The notes under the pieces are model-generated. The model did not search any database, was not told the DNA's origin, and saw only the letters and a program-made list of their open reading frames with translations. From the NCBI RefSeq assembly GCF_988242995.1, contig NZ_OZ547043.1: 64,000 bases of DNA; one strand, given 5' to 3'. This document shows, one piece after another, positions 1 to 24,117 of this stretch (positions are counted from its first letter, which is position 1; each line of letters starts with the position of its first letter). Position numbers and translations under genes: made by a program.

Positions 1-580
1 CAAAGTGTTCTGCCATCAGCATAATGTCGCTTTCGCGCTCGCGCAGGGGCGGCAGTTGCACTACATCGAAAGCCAGCCGGTCGAGCAGGTCAGCGCGAAA
101 AGTACCTTCATTGACCATCGCCGGGAGATCGGCATTCGTCGCGCATACCAACCGCACATTCACCTGCAATGGCTGGCTGCCGCCAACGCGCTCCAGTTCA
201 CCGTACTCAATCACGCGCAATAATTTCTCCTGCACCATCATCGGTGCCGTAGCGAGTTCATCAAGAAATAGCGTACCGCCGTCGGCACGTTCAAATCTCC
301 CTGGATGACGTTTTTGCGCACCGGTAAACGCGCCCGCTTCGTGACCAAACAGTTCGGAATCCAGCAGATTTTCATTTAACGCCGCGCAGTTAAGGGAAAT
401 AAACGGCCCCTGCCAACGGGAGGAGAGATAATGCAGACGGCTGGCAATCAGCTCTTTACCTGTGCCGCGCTCGCCGATGATGAGCACCGGTTTGTCCAGC
501 GGTGCGAGATGCGAAACCTGTTCCAGCACTTCGAGAAAGCTGTTTGCCTCACCAAGTAAATTATCTTTGTATTCTGCCAT
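1..580 (-). CDS. pspF: Sigma54-dependent psp operon activator PspF, 5' part of gene lies outside window start
   Basis: Minus-strand translation from ATG at 578-580 reads MAEYKDNLLGEANS; divergent to pspA; AAA+ enhancer-binding family. Confidence 0.9.
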   Translation of the reverse strand, partial: MAEYKDNLLGEANSFLEVLEQVSHLAPLDKPVLIIGERGTGKELIASRLHYLSSRWQGPFISLNCAALNENLLDSELFGHEAGAFTGAQKRHPGRFERADGGTLFLDELATAPMMVQEKLLRVIEYGELERVGGSQPLQVNVRLVCATNADLPAMVNEGTFRADLLDRLAFDVVQLPPLRERESDIMLMAEHF

Positions 581-674
581 GATGAAATTCGCCACTTGTT
601 AGTGTAATTCGCTAACTCATCCTGGCATGTTGCTGTTGATTCTTCAATCAGATCTTTATAAATCAAAAAGATAA

Positions 675-1415
<741 letters not shown>

Positions 1416-1468
1416 TAACATCCAGGCGGCGTCCGAACGCGCCGCCGCTCATCGTCTAAGGAGTCCTT

Positions 1469-1693
1469 ATGAGCGCGCTATTTCTGGCTATTCCGTTAAC
1501 CATTTTTGTGCTGTTTGTTTTACCGATCTGGTTATGGCTGCATTACAGCAATCGTTCTGGTCGCAGTGAATTGTCGCAAAGTGAGCAGCAGCGATTAGCG
1601 CAACTGGCTGATGAAGCAAAACGGATGCGCGAACGTATTCAGGCGCTGGAATCCATTCTTGATGCAGAACATCCGAACTGGAGGGATCGCTAA
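1469..1693 (+). CDS. pspB: Phage shock protein B
   Basis: 74 aa membrane protein, overlaps pspC start. Confidence 0.93.
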   Translation: MSALFLAIPLTIFVLFVLPIWLWLHYSNRSGRSELSQSEQQRLAQLADEAKRMRERIQALESILDAEHPNWRDR

Positions 1694-2052
1694 TGGCGGG
1701 CATTAATCTCAATAAAAAATTATGGCGTATTCCACAGCAGGGTATGGTACGCGGCGTCTGCGCCGGGATTGCCAACTATTTTGATGTACCAGTAAAACTG
1801 GTGCGTATCCTGGTGGTGCTGTCGATTTTCTTCGGTCTGGCGCTGTTTACCCTGGTTGCTTACATCATTTTGTCATTTGCGCTTGATCCAATGCCGGACA
1901 ACATGGCCTTTGGTGAGCAGCTACCTTCCAGCAGCGAATTGCTGGATGAAGTCGACCGTGAACTGGCGGCAAGTGAAACGCGTTTACGCGAGATGGAACG
2001 TTATGTCACTTCCGATACTTTCACGTTACGTAGCCGTTTCCGTCAACTGTGA
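1693..2052 (+). CDS. pspC: Phage shock protein C
   Basis: 119 aa, translationally coupled to pspB. Confidence 0.93.
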
Positions 2053-2060
2053 GGAAAGTT

Positions 2061-2282
2061 ATGAATACTCGCTGGCAACAGGCCGGGCAAAAGGTGAAGC
2101 CTGGTTTCAAATTAGCAGGCAAGCTGGTACTTCTTACCGCACTGCGCTATGGCCCGGCGGGTGTAGCTGGCTGGGCGATAAAATCAGTTGCTCGCCGACC
2201 ACTGAAAATGTTGCTGGCCGTGGCGCTGGAACCGCTGTTAAGTCGGGCTGCCAATAAACTGGCGCAGCGTTATAAAAGGTGA
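2061..2282 (+). CDS. pspD: Phage shock protein D
   Basis: 73 aa from internal Met [10 protein letters not shown] of ORF 2049..2282. Confidence 0.85.
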
Positions 2283-2356
2283 GGGGAGTTTCGCAAAAAT
2301 TGTTAAAGCTAAGGCATATTATGGATGGCAATTTTCATCCATAGAAGGACGCTTAC

Positions 2357-2671
2357 ATGTTTAAAAAAGGCTTACTTGCTCTGACACTGGTGTTTTCACT
2401 GCCCGTTTTCGCCGCTGAACACTGGATCGATGTTCGTGTTCCAGAGCAGTATCAGCAAGAGCACGTTCAGGGGGCCATCAATATTCCCCTGAAGGAAGTA
2501 AAAGAGCGCATTGCCACCGCCGTTTCGGATAAAAACGACACCGTGAAAGTGTATTGCAATGCCGGACGCCAGTCAGGGCAGGCAAAAGAGATCCTTAGCG
2601 AGATGGGATATACTCACGTTGAGAACGCCGGTGGCCTGAAAGACATCGCAATGCCGAAGGTCAAAGGTTAA
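2357..2671 (+). CDS. pspE: Thiosulfate sulfurtransferase (rhodanese) PspE, periplasmic
   Basis: 104 aa with signal peptide and rhodanese CNAGRQS active-site loop. Confidence 0.92.
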   Translation: MFKKGLLALTLVFSLPVFAAEHWIDVRVPEQYQQEHVQGAINIPLKEVKERIATAVSDKNDTVKVYCNAGRQSGQAKEILSEMGYTHVENAGGLKDIAMPKVKG

Positions 2672-2789
2672 CAAATTACTTATTGAGCGGTGTAAACAAC
2701 GCCGCTTATTCATTTGATAAATCAAAATTAACCCACATTATTATCTCCAGTATCTAATCCTTTCTACAGCTTTCTGGCACAGGACAGCA

Positions 2790-4187
2790 ATGAAGCGACT
2801 TAAAAATGAACTCAATGCGCTGGTGAATCGGGGTGTCGACAGACATCTGCGCCTCGCTGTAACCGGACTTAGCCGTAGCGGCAAAACAGCGTTTATCACC
2901 GCGATGGTTAATCAGTTGCTCAATATTCATGCCGGAGCACGTTTGCCGCTTTTAAGTGCGGTGCGTGAAGAGCGCCTGCTGGGCGTAAAACGCATTCCCC
3001 AGCGTGACTTTGGCATTCCGCGCTTCACCTATGATGAAGGACTGGCGCAGTTATATGGCGATCCTCCTGCCTGGCCGACGCCAACGCGCGGCGTCAGTGA
3101 AATCCGCCTGGCGCTACGTTTTAAATCGAACGATTCGCTGCTACGCCACTTCAAGGACACCTCCACGCTGTATCTGGAGATTGTGGATTATCCCGGCGAA
3201 TGGCTGCTCGATCTGCCGATGTTGGCGCAGGACTATTTAAGCTGGTCGCGCCAGATGACGGGCTTACTTAATGGTCAGCGCGGCGAATGGTCGGGGAAAT
3301 GGCGAATGATGTGCGAAGGGCTGGACCCGCTAGCGCCTGCCGACGAAAACCGGCTGGCAGACATTGCCGCTGCGTGGACCGATTATCTCCACCACTGTAA
3401 ACAGCAGGGGCTGCACTTTATTCAGCCAGGGCGCTTTGTCTTGCCGGGAGATATGGCAGGTGCGCCCGCGCTGCAATTCTTCCCGTGGCCGGATATCGAT
3501 GCCTGGGGCGAGTCCAAACTGGCGCAGGCCGATAAGCATACCAATGCCGGAATGCTGCGCGAGCGGTTTAATTATTACTGCGAGAAAGTGGTGAAGGGGT
3601 TCTATAAGAATCATTTTCTGCGCTTTGACCGCCAGATTGTGCTGGTGGATTGCCTGCAGCCTCTCAACAGTGGGCCACAGGCATTTAATGATATGCGTCT
3701 GGCGCTGACGCAGCTGATGCAAAGTTTCCACTACGGGCAGCGAACCCTGTTCCGGCGTTTGTTTTCGCCGGTTATCGATAAGCTATTGTTTGCTGCCACT
3801 AAAGCAGACCATGTGACCATCGATCAGCACGCCAATATGGTTTCATTACTGCAACAACTAATTCAGGATGCCTGGCAAAATGCGGCGTTCGAAGGGATCA
3901 GCATGGATTGCCTGGGGCTGGCGTCTGTTCAGGCGACCACCAGCGGAATTATTGATGTTAACGGTGAGAAAATCCCGGCGCTGCGCGGTAATCGACTCAG
4001 CGATGGCGCACCGCTCACTGTTTATCCTGGCGAAGTTCCCGCACGTTTGCCAGGTCAGGCGTTCTGGGATAAGCAAGGCTTCCAGTTTGAGGCGTTTCGT
4101 CCGCAGGTGATGGATGTCGACAAACCGCTGCCGCATATTCGTCTTGATGCTGCGCTGGAATTTTTAATAGGAGATAAATTGCGATGA
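2790..4187 (+). CDS. ycjX: YcjX family P-loop NTPase (DUF463)
   Basis: 465 aa; Walker A GLSRSGKT near N-terminus. Confidence 0.9.
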
Positions 4188-5245
4188 CCGAACCGTTAAA
4201 ACCACGTATTGATTTCGACGGTCCACTGGAGGTTGATCAGAATCCAAAATTCAGGGCGCAACAGACCTTTGACGAAAATCAGGCGCAAAATTTTGCCCCG
4301 GCCACGCTCGACGAAGCGCAGGAAGAAGAGGGGCAAGTTGAAGCGGTGATGGACGCAGCGTTACGTCCGAAACGCAGCCTGTGGCGCAAAATGGTGATGG
4401 GCGGGTTGGCTCTGTTTGGCGCAAGCGTTGTCGGGCAGGGCGTGCAGTGGACAATGAACGCCTGGCAAACTCAGGATTGGGTAGCGCTGGGTGGATGTGC
4501 CGCTGGGGCATTGATTATCGGCGCTGGCGTAGGTTCTGTGGTAACAGAGTGGCGGCGCTTATGGCGCTTGCGACAGCGCGCCCATGAACGCGACGAAGCG
4601 CGCGATTTGTTGCACAGTCACGGTACGGGTAAAGGCCGCGCATTTTGCGAAAAACTGGCGCAGCAGGCGGGCATCGACCAGTCGCATCCGGCACTGCAAC
4701 GCTGGTATGCCTCAATCCATGAAACGCAAAACGATCGTGAAGTGGTCAGCCTGTATGCTCATCTGGTCCAGCCGGTTTTAGATGCCCAGGCGCGGCGCGA
4801 AATCAGCCGTTCGGCGGCGGAATCAACGTTGATGATTGCGGTCAGCCCGCTGGCGCTGGTGGATATGGCATTTATCGCCTGGCGCAATCTGCGTTTGATC
4901 AATCGCATCGCCACGCTGTATGGCATTGAACTGGGATATTACAGCCGTTTGCGCCTGTTTAAGCTGGTATTGCTGAATATCGCTTTCGCCGGAGCCAGCG
5001 AACTGGTGCGCGAAGTGGGGATGGACTGGATGTCGCAAGATCTCGCTGCGCGTTTGTCTACCCGGGCAGCTCAGGGGATTGGTGCAGGACTTCTGACGGC
5101 ACGACTGGGGATTAAAGCTATGGAGCTTTGCCGCCCTCTGCCGTGGATTGACGATGACAAACCTCGCCTCGGGGATTTCCGTCGTCAGCTTATCGGTCAG
5201 GTGAAAGAGACGCTGCAAAAAGGCAAAACGCCCAGCGAAAAATAA
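4184..5245 (+). CDS. ycjF: YcjF family inner membrane protein (DUF697)
   Basis: 353 aa; start overlaps ycjX stop (coupled). Confidence 0.9.
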
Positions 5246-5392
5246 TGCAATATCGGGTGCTGACCGGATATCTTTACGCCGAAGTGCCCGTTTTTCCGTC
5301 TTTGTGTCAATGATTGTTGACAGAAACCTTCCTGCTATCCAAATAGTGTCATATCATCATATTAATTGTTCTTTTTTCAGGTGAAGGTTCCC

Positions 5393-6934
5393 ATGCGTCT
5401 GGAAGTCTTTTGTGAAGACCGACTCGGTCTGACCCGCGAATTACTCGATCTACTCGTGCTAAGAGGCATTGATTTACGCGGTATTGAGATTGACCCCATT
5501 GGGCGAATCTACCTCAATTTTGCTGAACTGGAGTTTGAGAGTTTCAGCAGTCTGATGGCCGAAATACGCCGTATTGCAGGTGTTACCGATGTCCGTACTG
5601 TCCCGTGGATGCCTTCTGAACGTGAGCATCTGGCGTTGAGCGCGTTACTGGAAGCGTTGCCTGAACCTGTGCTCTCTGTCGATATGAAAAGCAAAGTGGA
5701 TATGGCGAACCCGGCGAGCTGTCAGCTTTTTGGGCAAAAATTGGATCGCCTGCGCAACCATACCGCCGCGCAATTGATTAACGGCTTTAATTTTTTGCGT
5801 TGGCTGGAAAGCGAACCGCAGGATTCGCATAACGAGCATGTCGTTATTAATGGGCAGAATTTCCTGATGGAGATTACGCCTGTTTATCTTCAGGATGAAA
5901 ATGATCAACACGTCCTGACCGGTGCGGTGGTGATGTTGCGATCAACGATTCGTATGGGTCGTCAGTTGCAAAATGTCGCCGCCCAGGACGTCAGCGCCTT
6001 TAGTCAAATTGTCGCCGTCAGCCCGAAAATGAAGCATGTTGTCGAACAGGCGCAGAAACTGGCGATGCTAAGCGCGCCATTGCTGATAACCGGTGATACC
6101 GGCACCGGAAAAGATCTCTTTGCGTATGCCTGTCATCAGGCAAGCCCACGCGCGGGCAAACCCTATCTGGCGCTGAACTGTGCTTCTATCCCGGAAGATG
6201 CGGTCGAGAGTGAACTGTTTGGTCATGCTCCGGAAGGGAAGAAAGGGTTCTTTGAGCAGGCGAACGGTGGTTCGGTACTGCTGGATGAAATAGGTGAGAT
6301 GTCACCACGGATGCAGGCGAAATTACTGCGTTTCCTTAATGATGGCACTTTCCGTCGGGTTGGCGAAGACCATGAGGTGCATGTCGATGTGCGGGTGATT
6401 TGCGCTACGCAGAAGAATCTGGTCGAACTGGTGCAAAAAGGCGTGTTCCGTGAAGATCTCTATTATCGTCTGAACGTGTTGACGCTCAATCTGCCGCCGC
6501 TACGTGACTGTCCGCAGGACATCATGCCTTTAACCGAGCTGTTCGTCGCCCGCTTTGCCGACGAGCAGGGCGTGCCGCGTCCGAAACTGGCCGCTGACCT
6601 GAATACTGTACTTACGCGTTATGCGTGGCCGGGAAATGTGCGGCAGTTAAAGAACGCTATTTATCGCGCACTAACACAACTGGACGGTTATGAGCTGCGT
6701 CCTCAGGATATTTTGTTGCCGGATTATGACGCCGCAACGGTAGCCGTGGGCGAAGATGCGATGGAAGGTTCGCTGGACGAAATCACCAGCCGTTTTGAAC
6801 GCTCGGTATTAACCCAGCTTTATCGCAATTATCCCAGCACGCGCAAACTGGCAAAACGTCTCGGCGTTTCGCATACCGCGATTGCCAATAAGTTGCGGGA
6901 ATATGGTCTGAGTCAGAAGAAGAACGAAGAGTAA
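5393..6934 (+). CDS. tyrR: Transcriptional regulator TyrR
   Basis: 513 aa from MRLEVFCEDRLGLTREL; AAA+ GDTGTGK motif; C-terminal HTH. Confidence 0.95.
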   Translation: MRLEVFCEDRLGLTRELLDLLVLRGIDLRGIEIDPIGRIYLNFAELEFESFSSLMAEIRRIAGVTDVRTVPWMPSEREHLALSALLEALPEPVLSVDMKSKVDMANPASCQLFGQKLDRLRNHTAAQLINGFNFLRWLESEPQDSHNEHVVINGQNFLMEITPVYLQDENDQHVLTGAVVMLRSTIRMGRQLQNVAAQDVSAFSQIVAVSPKMKHVVEQAQKLAMLSAPLLITGDTGTGKDLFAYACHQASPRAGKPYLALNCASIPEDAVESELFGHAPEGKKGFFEQANGGSVLLDEIGEMSPRMQAKLLRFLNDGTFRRVGEDHEVHVDVRVICATQKNLVELVQKGVFREDLYYRLNVLTLNLPPLRDCPQDIMPLTELFVARFADEQGVPRPKLAADLNTVLTRYAWPGNVRQLKNAIYRALTQLDGYELRPQDILLPDYDAATVAVGEDAMEGSLDEITSRFERSVLTQLYRNYPSTRKLAKRLGVSHTAIANKLREYGLSQKKNEE

Positions 6935-6942
6935 GCGCGAAT

Positions 6943-6974
6943 ATGCCTGATGGTGCAACACCATCAGGCATATT
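6943..6974. terminator. Bidirectional hairpin terminator between convergent tyrR and tpx
   Basis: Inverted repeat ATATGCCTGATGGTG-CAAC-ACCATCAGGCATAT. Confidence 0.6.
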
Positions 6975-6977
6975 AAC

Positions 6978-7484
6978 TTATGCTTTCAGTACAGCCAGAG
7001 CTGCTTCGTAATCCGGCTCGGTGGTGATTTCATCCACCAGTTGGCTGAAAATCACATTGTCATTTTCATCAATAACCACAACGGCACGCGCTGCCAGACC
7101 TTTCAGTGGGCCATCAGCAATTGCCACACCGTAGGCTTGCAGGAATTCAGCGTTACGGAAAGTGGAGAGGGTGATAACGTTGTTCAGACCTTCTGCGCCG
7201 CAGAAACGAGACTGGGCGAACGGCAGATCGGCAGAAATACACAGCACAACGGTGTTGTCGATCTCGGTTGCCAGTTGGTTAAACTTACGTACTGATGCGG
7301 CGCAAACACCGGTATCAATACTCGGGAAAATGTTCAGCACTTTGCGTTTACCCGCAAACTGACCGAGGGTGACGTCAGACAGATCTTTTGCCACGAGAGT
7401 AAAAGTCTGCGCTTTGCTACCCGCCTGCGGGATGGAATTGGCGACTGTAACCGGGTTGCCCTGGAAATGAACGGTTTGTGACAT
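6978..7484 (-). CDS. tpx: Thiol peroxidase
   Basis: 168 aa [28 protein letters not shown]. Confidence 0.95.
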
Positions 7485-7592
7485 GATTATCTTTCCTGTT
7501 TACATATAGTTAACGTCACACCTAGTTTATGCTAACTGTCAATAACACAGCAAACGCTATTTGCGCTTAATCCGCAGACCACCGCGACAACA

Positions 7593-8542
<950 letters not shown>

Positions 8543-8568
<26 letters not shown>

Positions 8569-9271
8569 GATGCCAGCGCAGCAAGTTTGCCATCGCAAAG
8601 AGATATTTTTCGCTGGCTTCGTCGGAGGAGATGGGGGGAAACTCTGCGGTGATGCAATGCAGGTTGAGATCCGCACACCAACTACCGAAAGAGCCAGGTG
8701 TTTCATAACCGACGCTGGTTACCAGAGGCAATTCAAACGCCTGGGCCAGCCATTCGCCTAATTCGCTGTGTCTGGGATCTTCAATACAGGCCAGCGGATC
8801 GTGGAATGAGACCACCCAGGCGGGTTGAATGCGGTGTATAAGCTGGCACAGCGCCTGGGTTTCAGGTTCAGAGCCAGGTTTGTCACCTGTCAGCAATACG
8901 ACATCACGTTCTTCAGCGGCGCTGTTCCAGCGATAAACGGTTTCACCTTCCTTCCAGTTCGCCGCCGGAAAGTTTCTGTTTAAATCCACACCATTAGCAT
9001 TGGCCCGTAACCCCAACTGGCAGCCGTCAGGATTCACACACAGCACCACATGATGGCGGCGCAAAGACGGTGTCAAAGTCCGCAGAGCACAGGAGAGCGT
9101 GACGACCGAAGAGTTTTCATCACCGTGAGTGCCAGCCAGAATCAAACCACTTTCGCGGCTGGCTGCAGGGGCCGGAAACCAGATTAACGGCGCGCCCAAT
9201 AATGAACGTCCGTAATGTTCTGTTCCGGGCGGAAATGCGCCGCGTTCGGCGCGTGGGCGAGTTACGGTCAT
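8543..9271 (-). CDS. mpaA: Murein tripeptide amidase A (gamma-D-Glu-Dap amidase)
   Basis: 242 aa from MTVTRPRAERGAFPPG; 3' end overlaps convergent ycjG. Confidence 0.88.
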
Positions 9272-9561
9272 GATCGTCTCTGGTTCAGGAAGTATTACAG
9301 GCAGTGTTGTGCAAATTTTGCGGATTATCAAATCCTTTTCTTCAACGCTATGTCATCGATCTTGTATCACCTTTTTGCCGGAAGTTGTTTGCATTTTCAT
9401 TGATGGTCAGATATTAGAATTGTCGTAATGTTATATACATGGCGTATTTTATTCTTACTGGTTCTACACATGTTAATCGCATCTGATTGATCAGTTCACC
9501 TTAATAAGTTTAATAAATCGTACTGCACATAGTACAGTACGATGGTAGCTATATAATTGAT

Positions 9562-10200
9562 TTACATGAAGAATGGCTTGTCGCCATCAGTCCCGGGTTG
9601 ATTGATTCCTATATTCTCACCAATGTGTTTCTCAGGTTTATCGATGATATCTGTAATTAATGCTGCGACACTCTTACGTGATACGATCGTACCTTTGAAT
9701 GGTTCATTGCGTGAGGTAAGCTCATAATCAATAATATCTTCATCGGTCAGCCAGGCAGGGCGAAGAATTGTATATTCCAGTCCAGAAGCCTCAATTGCAT
9801 CCGCAGCCCTGCGGAATGGTTTTAGGGGTTCACCAATAACTGCATTATTCCATTCGCCAAATTTTCCTGGAACTTCATCATAAATACCGAGGGAAAGAAC
9901 AAAGATCAGACGTTTAACATCACAGGCTTTCATCGCAGCGATCACTGAATTTGCCTGAATATCTAAATCTTCCCCCGTAAGGTTGGCATACACAACATCC
10001 TGTCCCTGCATGGCCTGCTTCAGTGCTGCATGATTCAGTACATCCCCCATAATAATCTTGCTATTAGTGGGATAGGGTTTGTGGATTTTTGCTGGCTGAC
10101 GGGCAAATAAAGTTTGTTTAATGGTTTGTTTATCTGCCAGTTGATTAATCACATGGCGGGCTATCTGACCGCCAGCACCAAGAATCAGTACATTTTTCAT
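9562..10200 (-). CDS. NAD(P)-binding Rossmann-fold protein (intact counterpart of K-12 ymjC/ymjD fragments)
   Basis: 212 aa MKNVLILGAGGQIARHVINQL, GxxGxxG dinucleotide motif. Confidence 0.75.
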   Translation of the reverse strand: MKNVLILGAGGQIARHVINQLADKQTIKQTLFARQPAKIHKPYPTNSKIIMGDVLNHAALKQAMQGQDVVYANLTGEDLDIQANSVIAAMKACDVKRLIFVLSLGIYDEVPGKFGEWNNAVIGEPLKPFRRAADAIEASGLEYTILRPAWLTDEDIIDYELTSRNEPFKGTIVSRKSVAALITDIIDKPEKHIGENIGINQPGTDGDKPFFM

Positions 10201-10270
10201 GAAACTTTTCCCAGATTATTGGCAGCAATATGCCAGGCCATATCACTATTACGGATTTGAATATGTTTCA

Positions 10271-11191
10271 TTACAGAGTTTCCTCAAAGAACGGAGCTAA
10301 TACTGAAATTGCTTCAGCCACATAGACTTTGCCGTCATAAAGATCCATATGGTTTGCGCCTTCAACAATGTGATAGCGTTTATCCTGGCTTGATGCTCGA
10401 TCGTACAGGTCGTCACTCATCCATTTGCTCCCAGCCTGGCTGCCCGCCACAATCTGTATCGGCTGAGTCAGGTACACTTCCGCCATATGGTAAGCATCAT
10501 AGGTAATAATCTGGTTAAGGCTGCGCAAAGTAGCGTAACCCGGTGCTGTTGGGTACTGCGCGCGAGGGGTGTGGTAATACTCCCAGGCCTGACGCAGTTC
10601 TTCGTTCGGCGCATCGGACTCCTTCATTGGTGCCAGTGGCATAGTGGCGTATTCTCCGCTGCTAATATCGCTGGTTCGGGCGTTTGAACCCGCGTCAACG
10701 TATGGTAGGGCATCAATAGATTTCACATTGTTTTCCCAACCATTACGGAACATCGAACCAATATTGACCGCACTAACAGTACCGATGGCCTTGATGCGGC
10801 GATCCTGAATTGCAGCATTGGCTGTATATCCTGCACCGGCACAAATTCCCATCGCACCAATTCGGCTATTGTCGACATAAGAAAGCGTTGTCAGGTAATC
10901 AATCACGGCACTGACGTCTTCAGTACGAATGTATGGGTTTTCTAACTGACGCGGCTCGCCGCCGCTTTCACCTTGATAAGATGCGTCATAAGCAATAGTG
11001 ACAAATCCCTTTTCCGCCAGTTTTTCGGCATAGGTTCCGGCCGTTTGCTCTTTAACGCCCCCACCTGGGTGAGATACCACAATTGCCGGATACTGACGGG
11101 TTTCATCAAATTTTGGAGGGAAATAGATCACTGCAGACAAAGAGATGGTTGGATTATTGCTGTTAGTGAAGCTGACTTTATTATTCATCAT
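10271..11191 (-). CDS. ycjY: Alpha/beta hydrolase family protein YcjY
   Basis: 306 aa from MMNNKVSFTNSNNPTISLSAV within ORF 10271..11203. Confidence 0.85.
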   Translation of the reverse strand: MMNNKVSFTNSNNPTISLSAVIYFPPKFDETRQYPAIVVSHPGGGVKEQTAGTYAEKLAEKGFVTIAYDASYQGESGGEPRQLENPYIRTEDVSAVIDYLTTLSYVDNSRIGAMGICAGAGYTANAAIQDRRIKAIGTVSAVNIGSMFRNGWENNVKSIDALPYVDAGSNARTSDISSGEYATMPLAPMKESDAPNEELRQAWEYYHTPRAQYPTAPGYATLRSLNQIITYDAYHMAEVYLTQPIQIVAGSQAGSKWMSDDLYDRASSQDKRYHIVEGANHMDLYDGKVYVAEAISVLAPFFEETL

Positions 11192-11328
11192 TCCGTTCCT
11201 CATGGAGTTGTCGGTTCGTTTTAACGGTTGGTGATATCACTATAGATATTGATCATTAAGTTGATTAGACCCAAAATCATGATTAGACCTATCATTTAAA
11301 TGATTAATAGATTGTATGGAGATACTGA

Positions 11329-12228
11329 ATGAAGCGTGAAGAAATCGCTGATCTGATGGCGTTTGTCGTCGTTGCAGAGGAGCGTAGCTTCACTCGCGCA
11401 GCAGCCCGCCTGAGCATGGCGCAGTCAGCTTTAAGCCAGATAGTGCGCCGTATAGAAGAACGATTGGGATTGCGGCTTCTGACGCGAACCACGCGCAGCG
11501 TTGTACCCACTGAAGCGGGCGAGCATCTTTTGTCTGTTCTTGGCCCTATGTTGCATGACATAGATTCTGCCCTGACATCCCTGAGCGATCTGCAGAACCG
11601 CCCATCCGGGACAATACGTATTACTACTGTAGAACATGCAGCAAAAACGATATTGTTACCAGCTATGCGCACATTCCTGAAATCGCATCCTGAAATTGAT
11701 ATCCAGCTTACCATTGATTATGGTTTGACCGATGTCGTTTCTGAACGTTTTGATGCAGGCGTCCGTCTGGGTGGGGAGATGGATAAAGATATGATCGCCA
11801 TTCGAATCGGGCCAGATATACCAATGGCTATTGTTGGCTCACCGGATTATTTTTCTCGTCGAAGTGCTCCAACGTCAGTGTCACAATTAATAGATCATCA
11901 GGCAATTAATTTGTATCTTCCCACATCGGGTACAGCAAATCGCTGGAGATTAATACGCGGTGGACGTGAAGTTCGTGTTCGCATGGAAGGTCAGCTTTTA
12001 CTGAATACGATAGACCTGATCATTGATGCTGCAATTGATGGGCATGGATTGGCGTATCTACCTTATGATCAGGTTGAGCGGGCTATTAAAGAAAAAAAAC
12101 TGATACGTGTTTTGGATAAATTCACACCAGATTTACCCGGTTATCACCTGTACTATCCACACCGTCGACATGCTGGCTCGGCATTCTCATTATTTATAGA
12201 TAGGCTGAAGTATAAAGGTGCTGTTTAG
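11329..12228 (+). CDS. pgrR: LysR-family transcriptional regulator PgrR (YcjZ)
   Basis: 299 aa with N-terminal LysR HTH; divergent from ycjY. Confidence 0.88.
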   Translation: MKREEIADLMAFVVVAEERSFTRAAARLSMAQSALSQIVRRIEERLGLRLLTRTTRSVVPTEAGEHLLSVLGPMLHDIDSALTSLSDLQNRPSGTIRITTVEHAAKTILLPAMRTFLKSHPEIDIQLTIDYGLTDVVSERFDAGVRLGGEMDKDMIAIRIGPDIPMAIVGSPDYFSRRSAPTSVSQLIDHQAINLYLPTSGTANRWRLIRGGREVRVRMEGQLLLNTIDLIIDAAIDGHGLAYLPYDQVERAIKEKKLIRVLDKFTPDLPGYHLYYPHRRHAGSAFSLFIDRLKYKGAV

Positions 12229-12564
12229 CACTACTTGCTGATACATTAATTTAATTCTTCTCTTAACGTATTCTCAGTTCCTTTCAACGTTTTGGTCATT
12301 TTTTATTCTTCGTACAATGGCGACAGATGCTGATTATGATACCGAAAACGGGTTTGAACGTGCGAAGCCCGAACGTAGTGTTCGGAGTTCTATGTGCTTT
12401 ACCGCATTTTGGAGACTATTATTTACACTAAATCTGATTTGATATATTGATACTTAAAACATTTGATGCTTCCTTTGTCACTTTTTTGATGGAAGTTGTT
12501 TGCATTTCTTTAAGGCGAAACAAATAATTACGCATCAATTTTAATGTCGGTTAGAGGGAAACTT

Positions 12565-14178
12565 ATGAAGCACTCTGTTTCAGTCACGTGTTGTGCGCTG
12601 TTGGTCAGCAGCATTTCTCTTTCGTATGCTGCTGAAGTTCCGAGCGGCACAGTACTGGCAGAGAAGCAGGAGCTGGTGCGCCACATTAAAGATGAGCCAG
12701 CGTCGCTGGATCCCGCTAAAGCCGTGGGCCTGCCGGAGATTCAGGTCATTCGCGATCTGTTTGAAGGACTGGTGAATCAGAACGAGAAAGGGGAGATTGT
12801 CCCCGGCGTTGCGACTCAGTGGAAAAGTAATGACAACCGTATCTGGACTTTTACCCTGCGCGATAACGCAAAATGGGCGGATGGCACACCGGTAACGACG
12901 CAAGATTTTGTCTACAGCTGGCAACGTCTGGTGGACCCAAAAACATTGTCGCCATTTGCATGGTTTGCCGCGCTGGCGGGAATCAACAACGCACAGGCGA
13001 TTATTGATGGTAAAGCCACGCCTGACCAGCTTGGCGTCACCGCAGTTGATGCCCATACTTTGAAAATCCAGCTTGATAAACCGTTGCCGTGGTTTGTGAA
13101 TTTAACCGCTAACTTTGCCTTCTTCCCGGTGCAAAAAGCCAACGTAGAAAGCAGTAAAGAGTGGACGAAACCCGGAAATCTGATCGGCAATGGCGCTTAT
13201 GTTCTTAAAGAGCGCGTAGTCAATGAAAAACTGGTCGTGGTACCGAATACCCATTATTGGGATAACGCCAAAACGGTGCTGCAAAAAGTGACCTTCCTGC
13301 CAATTAATCAGGAATCCGCAGCCACTAAGCGTTACCTCGCGGGGGATATTGATATCACCGAATCCTTCCCGAAAAATATGTATCAGAAGCTGTTGAAGGA
13401 TATTCCGGGGCAGGTTTATACGCCGCCGCAGCTCGGGACCTATTATTATGCGTTTAACACGCAAAAAGGGCCGACGGCCGATCAGCGTGTTCGCCTGGCA
13501 TTAAGTATGACGATAGATCGCCGCCTGATGACCGAAAAAGTGTTGGGGACGGGGGAAAAGCCAGCGTGGCATTTTACACCAGATGTTACTGCCGGTTTTA
13601 CGCCGGAGCCTTCGCCGTTTGAACAAATGAGTCAGGAAGAACTGAATGCGCAGGCAAAAACTTTGTTGAGCGCAGCTGGTTATGGTCCGCAAAAACCGCT
13701 GAAGCTGACGCTTTTGTATAACACTTCAGAAAACCATCAAAAAATTGCGATTGCTGTAGCATCGATGTGGAAAAAGAACCTTGGCGTAGATGTTAAATTG
13801 CAGAATCAGGAATGGAAAACCTATATCGATAGCCGTAACACCGGCAATTTTGATGTTATCCGCGCCTCATGGGTAGGGGATTATAATGAACCCTCCACTT
13901 TCCTTACGTTGTTAACGTCAACGCATTCAGGGAATATTTCACGCTTTAACAATCCGGCATACGACAAAGTACTGGCCCAGGCATCAACGGAAAATACCGT
14001 TAAAGCGCGTAATGCCGATTACAATGCGGCAGAAAAAATCCTCATGGAGCAAGCACCGATTGCACCAATTTATCAATATACCAATGGACGATTAATCAAG
14101 CCGTGGCTGAAAGGTTATCCCATTAATAACCCGGAAGATGTGGCGTACAGTCGGACTATGTATATTGTGAAGCATTGA
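12565..14178 (+). CDS. mppA: Murein tripeptide ABC transporter periplasmic binding protein
   Basis: 537 aa from MKHSVSVTCCALLVSSISLSYA (signal peptide); OppA-family. Confidence 0.92.
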   Translation: MKHSVSVTCCALLVSSISLSYAAEVPSGTVLAEKQELVRHIKDEPASLDPAKAVGLPEIQVIRDLFEGLVNQNEKGEIVPGVATQWKSNDNRIWTFTLRDNAKWADGTPVTTQDFVYSWQRLVDPKTLSPFAWFAALAGINNAQAIIDGKATPDQLGVTAVDAHTLKIQLDKPLPWFVNLTANFAFFPVQKANVESSKEWTKPGNLIGNGAYVLKERVVNEKLVVVPNTHYWDNAKTVLQKVTFLPINQESAATKRYLAGDIDITESFPKNMYQKLLKDIPGQVYTPPQLGTYYYAFNTQKGPTADQRVRLALSMTIDRRLMTEKVLGTGEKPAWHFTPDVTAGFTPEPSPFEQMSQEELNAQAKTLLSAAGYGPQKPLKLTLLYNTSENHQKIAIAVASMWKKNLGVDVKLQNQEWKTYIDSRNTGNFDVIRASWVGDYNEPSTFLTLLTSTHSGNISRFNNPAYDKVLAQASTENTVKARNADYNAAEKILMEQAPIAPIYQYTNGRLIKPWLKGYPINNPEDVAYSRTMYIVKH

Positions 14179-14228
14179 TGTGATGGGAATTGGCGTTACC
14201 CTTGTGGATAACGCCAGTGATGTCTGAT

Positions 14229-15260
14229 TTAGCGACCCTGGTCCGGCGGTGTAATGTTATCCATATACAGCGTCTGGCTGGGGAAGGCAAAGTCCGCGCC
14301 GTGTGACTGTACAATATCGATAATCTTCAAATAAACGTCTTGCTGTGCAGCAAGCCATTCAGCCCATACCGTGGTTTTGGTAAAGCAATAAACCATAATA
14401 TTTAATGACGAATCGGCAAACTGGTTGAAATAAACCAGTAAGGTTTGTCGCTGGTCGATGGCCGGGTGATTTTTCAGCATCTCACGTACGGCTTCGACAA
14501 TAACGCCCACTTTTGCCGCATCCTCATAACGTAAACCAATGGTCGTGGTAATGCGCCGGTTGGTCATTCGTCCAGGATTTTCTACGCTGATCGACGAAAA
14601 CAGCGAGTTCGGTACGTACAATGGACGATTATCAAAGGTCGTAATTTTGGTAATTCGCCAGCCAATTTCCGCTACTGTACCTTCGATATTTCTGTCCGGT
14701 GAACGGATCCAGTCGCCAATACTAAAAGGACGGTCGAAATAGAGCATAATCCCGGAAAAGAAGTTACTCAGAATATCTTTACCGGCCATACCGACAGCCA
14801 GACCACCAATACCACCAAAGGTCAACAAGCCAGAAAGGCTCATGCCGAAATGTTCGCCATAAAGCAGAACAAGCACCACAATAATGGTGATTTTGATGAT
14901 ACGCGACATAATCCGCGCACTGGTGATATCGCGACCTTTTTTAATCTGCTGTTTTTCAAACTGATTAATCAGCAGAAATAGCTTAATCGTCAGAATAACC
15001 GCAATCAGGGACGTACAGATAAAATCGATAACGCCTGGGGTGATAAATTTGAGTTTATAGTTTTCTATAACATAATTAATGATGCTACCAACAGCACTGA
15101 TAATTATGGTGTAGATTAAAAATTGCACCGCATGGAATAAAAAACCTTTTCTTTTACGATTTCCGCGGCGAAACCAAAAGCTCATCAGAATCAATGCTGC
15201 GCAGCTACCGAAAATAATGACCAGATTAAGCGCATTATTTGTAAACAGTTCAGCGATCAT
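14229..15260 (-). CDS. ynaI: MscS-family mechanosensitive channel
   Basis: 343 aa multi-TM protein with MscS-like C-terminal domain. Confidence 0.9.
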
Positions 15261-15503
15261 TGTTTTATCAGGCTCCTCCAGATAATTGTCGTCATGCCGG
15301 AAACCCCTGGCGGGGCTATTTTACCGCGACAATTCATTCAGATCATCAATAGTCAGGGAAGGAAGTAGCAACATTAGCTAACTAATCAATGCGTTGATTG
15401 TAAATCCAGCTAAGAGGTAAGGTTTTCAGAGCAGACAACGGTAAAATGTCATGGTATTGTTACGTTTAGGTAACAAGAAATTTGTCTGCACAAGGATTAC
15501 ATC

Positions 15504-15761
15504 ATGATTATGGCGAAACTGAAGTCAGCGAAAGGGAAGAAATTTCTCTTTGGTTTGTTGGCGGTTTTCATTATTGCGGCGTCGGTTGTGACTCGCGCGA
15601 CCATCGGCGGCGTTATAGAACAGTACAATATTCCGCTGTCTGAGTGGACGACATCAATGTATGTGATTCAGTCATCGATGATTTTTGTTTATAGCCTGGT
15701 CTTTACTGTGTTGCTGGCAATACCGTTGGGAATTTATTTTCTTGGCGGCGAAGAGCAGTAA
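15504..15761 (+). CDS. ynaJ: Small inner membrane protein YnaJ (DUF2534)
   Basis: 85 aa, two hydrophobic segments. Confidence 0.85.
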   Translation: MIMAKLKSAKGKKFLFGLLAVFIIAASVVTRATIGGVIEQYNIPLSEWTTSMYVIQSSMIFVYSLVFTVLLAIPLGIYFLGGEEQ

Positions 15762-15810
15762 GTAAAAAATAGGCCCGATAACTCGGGCCTTGTCAGTTAT
15801 TGAAGAGTCG

Positions 15811-16761
15811 TTAATCGTCTTCTTCGTCATCCAGTTCAACGGGTGTCTGATACTGGTCAGGTTTAATGACCAGCAGGTCGCAGCGAAGATGATCAATCAC
15901 CTGTTCCGCCGTGTTGCCGAGGAATGCTGCTGAAATACCGGTGCGTCCGACCGTGCCCAGAACCACAATCCCCGCCTGTAAATGCTCCGCCAAATCAGGA
16001 ATCACCTCTTCTGGCAGACCTTTTTCTACGTGCGTCATGTTTTCATTAATGCCGAATTTCTGCCGCAGGGCTTTCATTGCCAGCAAATGTTGCCCACGAA
16101 TGGCATCGTTATAAACGCTCGGATCAAATTCCGGCAGTTCAATCGCGATATTAATTGGCGTTACCGGATAAGCGCCAACCAGATGAACTTCAGTATGGTT
16201 GACTTGTTCTGCCAGTTCGATCGTCTCTTTGACCAGTTTTTCATTGAGCGCATTATGGTACGGCTCTTCACTGGCGAGATTCACCGCCACCAGCGCCTTA
16301 CCCCCTTCCGGCCACGGCTGGTCTTTCACCATCCACACCGGGCTTGGGCATTTGCGTAACAGATGCCAGTCCGTTGGCGTAAAAATCACCGCTTCCAGAC
16401 GGTCATGTTGGTGCGCCATTTTTAGCACCAAATCGTGCCCGCCGCTGATCACTTCCTGAATGATGGCTTCGAAAGGACGGTTATGCCAGACCACTTTAAT
16501 TTCAATGGGAACGCCAGCATTGAGATAATATTTTGCCTGCTCGTGGATCCAGGCTGTACGCTGGCTGATGACGCCCTGACGCATAGCGGTACGTTCGTCC
16601 GGAGAGAGCAGGGTGGTCATTTCGTATGAGAAGTCATAGATCGGCAAAAAGGCTTTAATTTTGCCACCAATCCGTTGATGTAAATAAACAGCTCGCCGCA
16701 ATGCTGGTTGGTCGTCCTGGTTAGGATCGATAACAACGAGCATGTTCTGATACATAGCCAT
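15811..16761 (-). CDS. uspE: Universal stress protein E (tandem Usp domains)
   Basis: 316 aa from [29 protein letters not shown]. Confidence 0.93.
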
Positions 16762-16912
16762 ACAGGGTCTCCTTACAACAACTGTCAACGCAGTTTGTAA
16801 TTAAAAGATTAACCCATATCTGGTGAATGAAACAGTGATGAACCTTCTGCCAGATCAATAAATCAGAAAAATTTAATGATATGACAGAAGGATAGTGAGT
16901 TATGCGGAAAAA

Positions 16913-17665
16913 TCAGGCAACGTTACGCGTATGACCAGCAAGCTGGGCCAGCGCATCGTTATTTTCGATGGTGATGTATTTACCTTTGACTGCCAGCATA
17001 CCGCTTTTCTGGAAGCGACCCAGCAGACGGCTGATGGTTTCTACCGTCAGGCCCAGATAGTTACCGATATCGCCACGAGTCATCGTCAGGCGGAATTCAC
17101 GAGGGGAGAAGCCGCGTTGGGCAAAACGACGGGACAGGTTGTAGATGAATGCAGCCAGACGTTCCTCGGCATTTTTCTTCGACAACAGCAGGATCATGTC
17201 CTGATCGCCTTTGATTTCACCGCTCATCAGACGCATCATCTGCTGACGCAGATTCGGCATTTTACCGGACAAATCGTCCAGCGTTTCGAACGGGATTTCA
17301 CATACCATCGAGGTTTCCAGCGCCTGCGCGAAGCTCGGGTGATGACCGCTGCCGATTGCATCAAATCCCACCAGGTCACCAGCTAAATGGAAACCAGTGA
17401 TTTGCTCGTCGCCTTGCTCAGTAATGGTATAACTTTTAATCGTACCGGAGCGGATGGCATAAAGCGATTTTAGTTCATCACCAGCCTTAAACAGCGTCTG
17501 GCCTTTCTGAATAGGCTTCTTCCGCTCAATGATATTATCAAGCTGATCAAGCTCATGTTCGTTGAGTGTGAACGGGATGCAAAGCTGGCTGATGCTGCAA
17601 TCCTGGCAATGGATAGCACAACCGCCAGACTGAATGCGCCGTATAATTCGCTTTTCCGGGATCAT
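16913..17665 (-). CDS. fnr: Global anaerobic regulator FNR
   Basis: 250 aa from [29 protein letters not shown] (N-terminal Cys cluster); CRP-family HTH. Confidence 0.96.
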
Positions 17666-17859
17666 AGGTCTGCTCAAGCCGTAATTGATATTTGTCAATT
17701 TTAACATCTTTTTAGGGAGCAAGTAAGTCTAAGCAAACCTTAACAGCAGAGAATTCCGATATTAGATGTAAATATATGTCTATCTATTTGAAAACCCTTA
17801 AGTTGTTAAGGGTAACTTTACATAAAAGTGTGAACAAGCTGGCACAAATTGTTTAATGT

Positions 17860-18375
17860 TTACAGCAAAAGATAACCTTCGTGGCGTAATAACCACTCTT
17901 TTCGCTGAACTCTGCCTGCATATCCGGTCATGGTACCGTTTCTGCCAATGACCCGATGACAAGGCACAACAATGCTGATGGGATTCGATCCATTTGCCGC
18001 ACCTACGGCACGCGCCGCACCGGGGCGGCCCAATTGTTCAGCCAGTTGGCCGTAATGCATTACCTGCCCGCAGGGGATAGTACGTAGTGTTTTCCAGACT
18101 TCGCGCTGAAATGGCGTCCCCCCCGTGGCAGTGGGAAGCGTATCAATAATGCTAAGATTACCGGCAAAATATTCACGAAGCTTGTCACTTAAACCACCTG
18201 GGTTGGTGGCAGAAATGCGTTCATAGCCTTCTTTGCGGTAATGGATGTCCAGCAGCTGCACCATGCGTTCGCTGTACTCTTCCCATTCAACCGCCCGCAG
18301 GCGAAATTGCTCATCGCAAATCACCCACAGTGGACCCAGTGGCGTGACAATTTTTTCTTCAAGTAATCTCAGCAT
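17860..18375 (-). CDS. ogt: O6-methylguanine-DNA methyltransferase
   Basis: 171 aa with PCHRV active-site motif. Confidence 0.95.
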
Positions 18376-18385
18376 CCGTTCTCTC

Positions 18386-19912
18386 TTAAGACAAACGTGG
18401 GTAAATCCCCGGACCTATCGGCAGACCGACAAGATACCACGCCAGCAACATCAGCAGCCATACCACCAAAAAGATAAGTGGATAGGGCAAAACTAACGAA
18501 TAGTAAGTACCCAGTTTCGCGTCTGGTTTGTAGCGTTGCAGGAATCCAAGAAACAGTGGAACAAAAGGAGATACCGGCGCTAAAGGCAATACGGATGAGT
18601 CGGCAATACGAAAGAGGATTTGCGCAAATGCCGGGTGAAAGCCAAGTAGCATAAACATCGGTACGAAAATGGGGGCCAGAATCGACCAGATTGCGGAACC
18701 GCTGGCGATAAACATGCATAAGAAAGAGGAAAGCAACTCCAGACCGACAAACGCCGGGATGCCGCTAAGCCCTGAACTTTCCAGTATATCGGTCAGCCCC
18801 ACGGCGATGAATTTCCCCATGTTGCTCCAGTTAAACATGGCGACAAACTGGGCGAGGGGAAAAACCATCACGATAAATCCCGCCATCTCTTTCATCGGTT
18901 CAATCATTAATTGCGGTAAATCCGCCTGATGTCGAATTGTGCGGGTAGCGATGCCATAAGCCAGCGAGACCACAAAGAAAAAAAGAATGATCAGTGGCAC
19001 GATACCTTTAATAAAGGGTGATGGCATCACGGTGTGATTAATTGGATCGCGCAATATCCCGTTTTCCGGGATCACCATCAGCGCAATCGCAGCAATAAAA
19101 AGTAGCGATACGACACCTGCTATGCGTAAACCAAAACGCTGACTTTCGGTCAATGTCTGCAGTTTCTCATCGCTGTTTCCCTGCCATTGACCTAACCGTG
19201 GCTCGATGATTTTGTCGGTTATCAGGCCGCCAACAATCGTCAGTACGACTACGGAGCTGGCCATAAAATACCAGTTATCAATTACACTGACGTGCATTTG
19301 CGGATTGAACGCAGCCGCCGCTTCCGTGCTGATCCCCGACAGCAACACGTCGGTTGTGACAATCAGTAAATTAGCCGTAAAGCCGCAACCTACGCCTGCA
19401 ATGGCGGCAAGTAAACCTGCAACTGGATGCCTGCCCACCGCCAGAAAAATTAGCGCACCCATCGGTGGCATGATCACTAACGCCGCATCGGAAGAAATGT
19501 GGCTGAAAAAAGCAATAAACAGCACCATATAACTGGCGTAGCGGGCATTCACATGCGATGCCATTTTAACCATCAACGCTGGCAGTAAGCCGACGCGCTC
19601 CGCCAGACCGGCACCTAAAACCAGCGCCAGGATCGCACCAAGTGGAGCAAAACCGCTAAAGTTTTTAATAACATTGGGTAAAAACCAGTGTAATCCTTCC
19701 ACACTGAGCAGGTTTTTCACGACCACCGGCGTACCATCGGTCGGGTTTTTCGCACTGACGCCAAAGGCCGACAAAATTGCCGTCGTCACCATGAGTACGA
19801 TAATCAAATAGATAAAGAGCAAAAAAGGATGGGGAACCTTGTTACCAATTCTTTCGACCCAGCCATAGAGCTTCCCGGATTGGGAGGACGACGGTATGGA
19901 TGACATACTCAT
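18386..19912 (-). CDS. abgT: p-Aminobenzoyl-glutamate transporter
   Basis: 508 aa polytopic membrane protein from [18 protein letters not shown]. Confidence 0.92.
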
Positions 19913-19948
19913 GGGCATTCCTCGTTTGTTGTGTTTGCGTTGTTGTTG

Positions 19949-21394
19949 TTATTTTAAAGGTGACGGTGTCACGTTTTTCGGGATAGGGCAGTGATACGGT
20001 TGCGTGTCCGTAACTTGCTGATGCTCTTGTTGGCATTCTTGCAATAGCCCTGAATCAATGAAGAGATTAAGTGTGGTTGCTGCCATAGTTTTCGCCGCCA
20101 GCAGCATTCCTTTATGAGCAATAGATGTTCGCCCCTGGCTAACCAGTTGCCACGTATGTAGCGGGGTACCGACGGCAAAGCAGGGGCTGAAACACTGGGC
20201 AACAGGCAGTTTCCAACTGACGTCGCCGACATCAGTCGATGCCGCAAGCACGTTATCGGTGGCGGCATATGGAGCGACTTCATTCGCCAGTACCGTTTCA
20301 CGATGACGTAGTGCAAAAGCCTTGCCGTTTTCGCCACCGGTTGCAGCGATATTATTCAGACTGTTTTGCCGATCGTTGGGGGTGAGCGTAGCCTGAATTT
20401 GTTTCGCAAAAGCCAGTTCTTCGCAGTTCCATTCCGGAGTACCAAAATGGGATAGGGCCTGGTACATGGCATTTTCTAAGGTGCGATTCGGGAGATAACT
20501 GGAACAGGCTTTGTCGAAGCGGCATTCAACCGTGGTTTCGGTCATCAATGCCGCACCTTCGGCGATTTTGGCGACCCGATCATAAATATGCTGCACATCG
20601 GTCATTTCGGGGGCGCGGATAAGATAAAGCACTTCTGCCTGCGCCTGGACCACGTTGGGCGAGATCCCGCCGCTATCTATGATGGCATAGTGTACGCGCG
20701 CTTTTTCAATAATATGTTCGTTGAGGAAGTTGGTGCCAGTGGTCATCAACGTTACGGCATCAAGGGCGCTGCGTCCCAAATGAGGGGAGTTCGCGGCATG
20801 TGCTGCGATCCCTTTAAAGCGCCATGATGCCTGAATGTTTGCCAGCGTGCGGGTATTGAACATACCGGCAAAGGCTTCCGGGTGCCAGGTGAGTGCCGCA
20901 TCCACATCATCAAATACCCCCTCGCGGACCATGAACGCTTTACCCGAGCCGCCTTCTTCGCCAGGACAACCATAAAAGCGCACCGTGCCGCCTTGCCCAT
21001 ATTGTTCCAGCCATTTCTTGACGGCTATTGCTGCGGCAAAGGCGGCGGTTCCCAGCAAATTGTGTCCGCAACCGTGACCATTTTCACCGGGCGTCGCGGA
21101 TGTAGGTTGCGCGCAACCTGCTTGCTGACTTAAACCTGCCAGGGCGTCATATTCCCCCAGCAGGGCGATAACCGGTTTGCCTTGACCAAACGAAGCAATA
21201 AAGGCATTTGGGATATTGCCTACGTTGCGGGTAACGGTGAAGCCTGCAGACTCCAGCGCCGAAGCCAGATGCTCCGCTGACCAGAACTCTTCAAAACGTG
21301 TTTCTGGATGATCCCAGATTTGATCGGCAATATCGGTATAACGTTGGCGATCGGCTTCAATCGCATCGTCGATAAAACGATAGATTTCCTGCAT
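19949..21394 (-). CDS. abgB: p-Aminobenzoyl-glutamate hydrolase subunit B (M20 peptidase)
   Basis: 481 aa MQEIYRFIDDAIEADRQRYTDIADQIWDHPE. Confidence 0.92.
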   Translation of the reverse strand: MQEIYRFIDDAIEADRQRYTDIADQIWDHPETRFEEFWSAEHLASALESAGFTVTRNVGNIPNAFIASFGQGKPVIALLGEYDALAGLSQQAGCAQPTSATPGENGHGCGHNLLGTAAFAAAIAVKKWLEQYGQGGTVRFYGCPGEEGGSGKAFMVREGVFDDVDAALTWHPEAFAGMFNTRTLANIQASWRFKGIAAHAANSPHLGRSALDAVTLMTTGTNFLNEHIIEKARVHYAIIDSGGISPNVVQAQAEVLYLIRAPEMTDVQHIYDRVAKIAEGAALMTETTVECRFDKACSSYLPNRTLENAMYQALSHFGTPEWNCEELAFAKQIQATLTPNDRQNSLNNIAATGGENGKAFALRHRETVLANEVAPYAATDNVLAASTDVGDVSWKLPVAQCFSPCFAVGTPLHTWQLVSQGRTSIAHKGMLLAAKTMAATTLNLFIDSGLLQECQQEHQQVTDTQPYHCPIPKNVTPSPLK

Positions 21395-22704: not shown

Positions 22705-22879
22705 AACCTTTCCCGTCATCAGTAAAAAGTGTGACCCGGTTCACGTAGCGATAGTTTTTACTTATCACTAACTGATTTTTCACAGTTTTAACCGTTCATA
22801 AATTACCCTGACACAATCATCTGCATTAAAGTAGATGCCAGTTTCTTTGGTCTGATAAATAACGGTTATCGGTGGCGTC

Positions 22880-23788: not shown

Positions 23789-23794
23789 AACTGC

Positions 23795-23890: not shown

Positions 23891-24117
23891 GACTGTGTTA
23901 TAACGGTTTTAACCTTTAGTTGCCAATTTTCTTCAGTGACAGATTTCACGAAAATATAAGTTACATTATTAATATCGTGAATGAATAATCATGCATAAGC
24001 ATTTTGCTTAAAATATCGGCAACATTTGGAACTCATTACTGGAAATTTGGGTAATACGTTGTTGGACCGACCCGGTCTGGTTATCATATCGCGCTCTTAA
24101 TTGCGGGAGGATGTAAC

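Follow-up and report, generated by a model that had tools for sequence, protein, structure and literature searches.

An intact NAD(P)H-binding SDR gene at the ymjC locus of Escherichia coli, very probably the last gene of a cassette that has decayed stepwise in this species

The stretch of DNA analysed here, called the window throughout, comprises 64,000 nucleotides of contig NZ_OZ547043.1 (NCBI RefSeq assembly GCF_988242995.1). The order of its genes matches that of the E. coli region tyrR-tpx-ycjG-mpaA-[SDR]-ycjY-pgrR-mppA, in which SDR denotes the gene under study (Table 1). The gene ycjY is the first of a cassette and the SDR gene is the last. Among 5,426 complete E. coli genomes, the best match to window positions 1..24000 is E. 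coli 042 with 99.1% identity, and the window is somewhat divergent from all of the genomes in this set. The 3' ends of ycjG (plus strand) and mpaA (minus strand) converge and overlap by 26 bp (window 8543..8568), and they do likewise in K-12. In the pgrR-mppA interval of O157 (locus L002, 6908..6982) and of SE11 (locus L014, 5447..5542), PGAP annotates a short, internal pseudogene fragment of queH (epoxyqueuosine reductase).

Table 1. Genes and other features around the SDR gene, in coordinates of the window
Feature	Position	Strand	Basis
SDR gene, full-length counterpart of K-12 ymjC	9562..10200	-	ORF list, Pfam, 3QVO, WP_000800177.1
mpaA, murein tripeptide amidase, downstream neighbour	8543..9271	-	annotation transfer from collinear loci
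ycjY, alpha/beta hydrolase of dienelactone-hydrolase/Peptidase_S15 type, GICAG nucleophile motif	10271..11191	-	collinear annotation
pgrR (ycjZ), LysR-type regulator, divergent from ycjY	11329..12228	+	ORF list, collinear annotation
Remnant ORF of 24 codons, equivalent of K-12 ymjD	10197..10271	-	translation and alignment with SE11 hydrolase-2
Segment of 665 bp missing from K-12	9397..10061		four-way alignment and junction walk
Terminator-like hairpin, 12-bp stem, 3-nt loop	9517..9543	-	RNA fold

The ORF list gives the SDR gene as an ATG-initiated frame of 212 aa that runs without interruption to a stop codon included in its coordinates, and an ORF of this kind is far beyond chance. The initial annotation had placed an uninterrupted Rossmann-fold ORF with the motif GAGGQIARHV at exactly these positions, leaving the minus strand unstated. 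The motif is present in the N-terminus of the protein (MKNVLILGAGGQIARHV), where the glycine-rich dinucleotide-binding signature GxxGxx[GA] reads G8-A-G-G-Q-I-A14, and the protein matches the Pfam profile PF13460 (NAD_binding_10) over its entire length (1-184 of 184) with E=3e-54 and 184.1 bits, the gathering cut-off being 27.2 bits. Matches to the NmrA and Epimerase profiles are weaker and confined to the N-terminal half, and the catalytic YxxxK of classical SDRs was not found in the 212 residues, whose tyrosines lie at positions 43, 71, 107, 143 and 159; on these two grounds the protein is classed as an 'atypical' SDR. Because YxxxK is absent, catalysis by the protein is unreadable from its sequence, and among its NmrA-like relatives there are some that act as sensors and not as enzymes. 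An NCBIfam search returned sub-threshold matches only (no more than 24 bits, with cut-offs of at least 367), so the protein receives no equivalog name. Its sequence is exactly that of WP_000800177.1 ('SDR family oxidoreductase'), which is found in E. coli SE11 and 2012C-4221. Positions 9562..10200 thus hold an ordinary, intact copy of the gene for a small NAD(P)H-binding reductase, and one that is already known: thousands of genomes carry an annotation for it, the structure of the protein has been solved and the K-12 copy is flagged as incomplete by PGAP.

In a search of solved structures, chain A of 3QVO was identical to the SDR at 209 of 212 residues over the full length (E=2.6e-138). PDB 3QVO ('NmrA family protein') is essentially the same protein, from which the window SDR differs by the three substitutions K48Q, V69I and G114V; the deposited chain carries an N-terminal tag, and the entry, which we take to be a structural-genomics deposition from Shigella flexneri, has no function label. 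A distant homologue from Veillonella parvula, an NADP-binding protein of the NAD-dependent epimerase/dehydratase family (3R6D, 4HNG, 4HNH and 4IPT), aligns end to end with SDR residues 2-211 (E=1.6e-19) and shares with it GAxGQIA, an Arg-Gln pair that follows strand 2 and, in the C-terminal part, YTILR..WL and PGT..DKP. Similarity to BLVRB (biliverdin-IX-beta/flavin reductase; 1HDO) and to the haem-utilisation proteins ChuY/ShuY (5GUY, 5FFQ) is marginal (E of 1e-5 to 1e-6; 4.5e-6 to 2.5e-5), although these proteins, of ~205-215 aa, are of the same NAD_binding_10/atypical-SDR fold class. They use NADPH to reduce tetrapyrroles, flavins or quinones and do without the classical YxxxK. Their genomic context differs, the partners of the window SDR being Cys-nucleophile hydrolases, and no haem-uptake genes were found near the SDR gene among the ORFs of the window or in the collinear E. 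coli loci. Given the marginal similarity and the absence of haem genes, membership of the BLVRB/ChuY family was rejected, although the SDR may work in a similar manner.

In MG1655 the only annotated genes between mpaA and ycjY are ymjC (b4525; 60 aa, 1390680..1390862) and ymjD (b4673; 21 aa, 1390868..1390933), and in another K-12 assembly PGAP labels the place of ymjC 'NAD-dependent dehydratase, incomplete, missing C-terminus'. We aligned the window with MG1655, O157:H7 Gim1-1 and 2012C-4221 and walked the junction base by base. The DNA of ymjC is collinear with the window as far as the junction of a 665-bp deletion, where one base of microhomology makes 9398..10062 as valid as the coordinates in Table 1. 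Of the deleted segment, 500 bp belong to the SDR coding sequence (codons 47-212 with the stop codon) and 165 bp to the spacer between the SDR gene and mpaA, and K-12 thereby lacks the C-terminal 78% of the gene. Residues 1-46 of the ymjC product are identical to those of the window SDR (46/46) and are followed by an unrelated tail of 14 residues (KMQTTSGKKVIQDR), which is translated from DNA that lies between genes in all of the other forms of the locus; the distance from the stop codon to mpaA is 81 bp for ymjC in K-12 and 290 bp for the SDR gene in the window. K-12 ymjC keeps the glycine motif, yet it can form no complete Rossmann domain. Flanking gene order and collinear DNA identify the window SDR gene as the full-length orthologue of K-12 ymjC. 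The initial annotation had held that K-12 carries this gene split into the fragments ymjC and ymjD. It was right that K-12 has no intact copy, and the alignment with the K-12 region revealed no identical intact ORF there, but the gene is truncated by deletion of its codons 47-212 rather than split.

Nor is ymjD a piece of the SDR gene, as had been supposed. It lies upstream of ymjC, it starts at the final base of the stop codon of ycjY, and it shows no similarity to the 212-aa SDR. Between ycjY and the SDR gene, O157:H7 and SE11 carry a second alpha/beta hydrolase gene of 310 codons (hydrolase-2), which is intact in SE11, where its product starts MKHIQIRNSDMAWHIAAN and ends HLG, and frameshifted in O157 Gim1-1. 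The K-12 ymjD product (MKHIQIRNSDMDWHIAANNLG) matches residues 1-18 and the last two residues (LG) of SE11 hydrolase-2, and the window remnant (MKHIQIRNSDMAWHIAANNLGKVS) is composed of the first 18 codons of hydrolase-2, a junction codon, the last two codons and a read-through. The K-12 version has 21 codons and that of the window 24, the TAA of K-12 reading AAA in the window. The hydrolase-2 deletion, whose junction lies between window positions 10217 and 10216 and is common to the window and K-12, removes 867 bp in frame; a further 12 bp lost upstream of the SDR start make up the remainder of the size difference, the gap between the flanking genes being 70 bp as against 949 bp. The start of the remnant overlaps the ycjY stop (TAATG), and its TGA overlaps the SDR start (ATGA). 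By these matches, ymjC and ymjD each derive from a gene of their own and are not halves of one. EcoGene, we assume, calls ymjD an 'expressed deletion pseudogene fusion remnant'; our literature search on ymjC/ymjD returned mostly unrelated acronyms and no paper pairing 'ymjC' with 'pseudogene'. As to the frameshifted hydrolase-2 gene of O157:H7 Gim1-1 (locus L002, 3922..4853), it contains a run rich in G (GTGTGTGTGGGGGGGGTGG), and in other O157 genomes 840 bases match the hydrolase-2 query of 841 bp, which together suggest homopolymer length variation in the hydrolase-2 gene of O157.

A protein search with the SDR returned 4,745 homologues at E<=1e-10, nearly all of 211-216 aa and all with generic names. 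Identity is 79-84% in Enterobacter, Raoultella, Klebsiella aerogenes, Citrobacter koseri, Kluyvera and Serratia, and 67-71% in Stenotrophomonas, Burkholderia, Halomonas and Pseudomonas. At loci L005-L007, labelled Salmonella/Klebsiella from their source names, a divergent LysR gene, hydrolase-1, hydrolase-2 and the SDR gene are followed by genes for an adh_short protein and an OYE flavoreductase, and Serratia (locus L008) has LysR, hydrolase-1, hydrolase-2 and SDR in the same order. Pairwise identities to the window proteins (87% for PgrR, 93% for YcjY against hydrolase-1 of L005 and 83% for the SDR, with the LysR proteins of L005 and L008 at 86-87%) confirm that these are orthologues; YcjY and hydrolase-2 are paralogues with 42% identity. 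The loci of Burkholderia and Stenotrophomonas have the SDR gene and a gene like that of hydrolase-2 amid adh_short, OYE, flavodoxin-like, CMD and DLH genes. Judged by gene order, pgrR-ycjY-hydrolase-2-SDR is a cassette conserved across genera, of which the window retains hydrolase-2 as a remnant only. The cassette is bordered in Salmonella/Klebsiella by a variable defence-gene spot whose anti-phage-type genes differ by genome; those that come after the cassette are AGS_C/Guanylate_cyc and PycTM at L005 (8068..9978) and SMODS/AGS_C and SLATT_6 at L006 (7988..9936).

Three forms of the locus can be distinguished in E. coli, namely form B with all four genes (SE11, O157), form A in which hydrolase-2 has been lost (the window) and form C in which the 665 bp have also been lost (K-12). 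Since the outgroups have the same four-gene order, form B is the ancestral one, and the order of change is B to A (window) to C (K-12). The proposal that the window strain retains an ancestral functional gene holds in part: the SDR orthologues of Serratia and Salmonella/Klebsiella are also 212 aa long, and the intact SDR is therefore the older state, but the hydrolase-2 junction that the window has in common with K-12 makes the locus as a whole intermediate and not ancestral. The passage from form B to form A was the loss of the in-frame 867 bp and of the 12 bp, with the 24-codon equivalent of ymjD left behind, and the passage from A to C the loss of the 665 bp, which left the first 46 SDR codons as ymjC and placed mpaA close behind the ycjY transcription unit.

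Frequencies were taken from the 5,426 complete E. coli genomes, a collection biased to clinical isolates, by threshold-based counts. The full SDR region, scored as at least 80% of window positions 9300-10400, is present in 2,895/5,426 genomes (~53%), so retention of the gene is common and not peculiar to the window strain. The K-12 deletion junction occurs in 2,293 of the 5,426; hydrolase-2 was found in 1,272 of them and the junction left by its deletion in 3,949. These counts correspond to ~23% for form B, ~30% for form A, ~42% for form C and ~4% for other states. Two independent subtractions give 1,623 or 1,656 genomes of form A, and as they agree, form C can be taken as a subset of the genomes in which hydrolase-2 is deleted. 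Other lesions were also seen: an IS5 element lies inside the SDR gene of CRE444, a frameshifted allele of 171 aa diverges after residue 159 (388 database members) and an N-truncated allele of 162 aa is called from Met51 (332 database members). With ~42% of genomes deleted, and with the IS5, frameshifted and N-truncated alleles, the SDR is clearly dispensable in E. coli. The serotype O157:H7 belongs to phylogroup E. A gene labelled 'ymjC' has been reported as enriched in lactic-acid-resistant E. coli, with a presence of 90% in phylogroup A and 0% in phylogroup E (PMC9602453). We rejected this as functional evidence on the SDR, as the phylogroup pattern misfits and O157:H7 has the gene intact; the pan-genome label probably tracks particular allele clusters.

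The SDR gene has a dN/dS ratio of 0.05 when compared with its Salmonella/Klebsiella orthologue. Within E. coli, where 8 synonymous and 3 non-synonymous changes were counted, the ratio is 0.11. Values of 0.05-0.1 indicate that the gene is under purifying selection, and the sequence data suggest that the SDR of the window is still functional. We consider it very likely that this intact gene for an NAD(P)H-binding SDR is the last of a cassette that has decayed stepwise in E. coli. With hydrolase-2 gone from the window, however, the pathway may be broken, and the SDR could be intact but useless, a dispensable passenger heading for loss in E. coli, its pathway having been broken already by the deletion of hydrolase-2. 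The absence of hydrolase-2 from the window speaks for such a state, as does the repeated independent inactivation of the SDR gene in E. coli, by the 665-bp deletion (2,293/5,426), by IS5 and in the 171-aa and 162-aa alleles. It is nonetheless unlikely, given that the window SDR is identical to that of SE11, where the whole cassette is kept, and that ~1,650 genomes of form A have a full-length ORF region; the dN/dS of 0.11 within E. coli also argues against it, although it comes from few substitutions and is compatible with a recent relaxation.

As to what a functional SDR would do, the N-terminal GAGGQIA Rossmann motif together with Arg34 most likely binds NADPH, a preference that we infer from Arg34-Gln35 after strand 2, the pair that the NADP-bound Veillonella homologue also has. 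The protein probably reduces a carbonyl, a quinone or an activated C=C of a small molecule on which the partner hydrolases act as well. These hydrolases have the GxCxG nucleophile motifs GICAG and GVCGG and match the DLH and Peptidase_S15 families, and a hydrolase pair that elsewhere stands with OYE, classical SDRs and flavodoxin-like reductases is typical of a LysR-controlled catabolic or detoxification module. The cassette would accordingly serve in the catabolism or detoxification of lactones, esters or electrophiles and not in peptidoglycan recycling. We further infer that the SDR gene is co-transcribed with ycjY under repression by PgrR. No strong Shine-Dalgarno sequence was found before the SDR ATG, which counts against this reading. 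The TAATG and ATGA overlaps of the remnant would fit a common transcript that starts at the ycjY promoter and is translated in a coupled manner.

PgrR has been described as regulating peptidoglycan recycling, and ycjY-ymjDC-mpaA belongs to its regulon (PMC5934670; PMC3946193); the ycjY-ymjDC-mpaA operon of K-12 goes back to Shimada et al. 2013, as cited in PMC5934670 and PMC12711010. The sequence TAGACC-18-TATCAT, the divergent promoter of pgrR according to a report on K-12 (PMC3946193), was found in the window, where pgrR, the divergent promoter region, ycjY and mpaA stand in the same order as these K-12 regulon genes. The window differs from the K-12 operon in that an intact SDR gene, a 290-bp spacer and a hairpin separate ycjY from mpaA, and the operon structure described for K-12 may be inapplicable to it. 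The hairpin begins 19 nt past the SDR stop, has a U-rich tail (UUUAUUAAACUUAUU) that reaches to ~9502 and folds with -19.4 kcal/mol (z=-2.57). It lies within the segment deleted from K-12 and is conserved in the window, O157, 2012C-4221 and SE11, that is, in all forms that keep the spacer. A strict terminator scan left it uncalled. The consensus promoter scan gave 3 promoter-like sites against a shuffled mean of 4.8 and no separate mpaA promoter in the spacer, and the Rfam scan of window positions 9000..11500 at E<=1 gave no match, so the spacer lost by K-12 contains no known RNA. The hairpin was also considered as a LexA box (CTGT...CAG; TACTGTAC...GCAGTA) and rejected, as its half-sites stand one base too close together and the right one is GCAG rather than ACAG. 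The SDR-mpaA spacer of SE11 (locus L014; columns 145-162 of alignment A1) has an extra 18 bp (TTACATCTAAGTCAGCAT) that is absent from the window, O157 and 2012C-4221.

The position of the SDR gene in E. coli, between mpaA/ycjG and mppA, invites the reading that it is a peptidoglycan-recycling enzyme acting with MpaA, YcjG and MppA on the breakdown products of murein peptides. The name and description of PgrR and the inclusion of ycjY-ymjDC-mpaA in its regulon (PMC5934670) point the same way, as does the filamentation seen on overexpression of ycjY (PMC3614548). We nevertheless hold this to be very unlikely. In all of the loci outside E. coli (Salmonella/Klebsiella, Serratia, Burkholderia and Stenotrophomonas), mpaA, ycjG and mppA are absent beside the cassette, which is flanked instead by other reductases or by unrelated genes. 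Within E. coli, the 290-bp spacer and the terminator-like hairpin part the intact SDR gene from mpaA, the close spacing of ymjC and mpaA exists only after the K-12 deletion, and K-12 recycles murein peptides without the SDR. That the K-12 state should be the original one, the window having gained DNA by insertion or recombination that created a long ORF by luck, has next to no probability and is refuted by the outgroup comparison: the bare difference in length between the loci is all that favours it, whereas a protein of the same 212 aa and 68-83% identity occurs from Serratia to Burkholderia, and ymjC leaves this family after residue 46 to enter sequence that is intergenic in the other forms.

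With the SDR gene taken as the last member of a catabolic or detoxification cassette, the arrangement in K-12 can be viewed in a different way. The deletion removed the 3' end of the SDR gene together with the hairpin and left the ymjC stop 81 bp from mpaA, and it may thereby have produced a transcriptional fusion specific to form C. We offer, as a possibility that we do not rate as probable, that the K-12 ycjY-ymjDC-mpaA operon is a by-product of the 665-bp deletion, which would have fused an unrelated, horizontally shared cassette to mpaA. The role of PgrR in peptidoglycan recycling rests largely on this operon. If the suggestion were true, control of mpaA by PgrR would come about through read-through and would be limited to the ~42% of E. 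coli with the deletion, and the native task of the cassette would be to catabolise or detoxify a lactone, ester or electrophile and not to recycle the cell wall.

The value of the locus as a discovery is small, and its uses are modest. It corrects a likely misreading of ymjC and ymjD. K-12 is the most decayed of the three common states of this locus, and conclusions drawn from it on the PgrR regulon and on the transcription of mpaA need not hold for most E. coli. The conserved cassette, in which a reductase stands with two Cys-nucleophile hydrolases, is accessible to study in strains such as SE11 but not in K-12.
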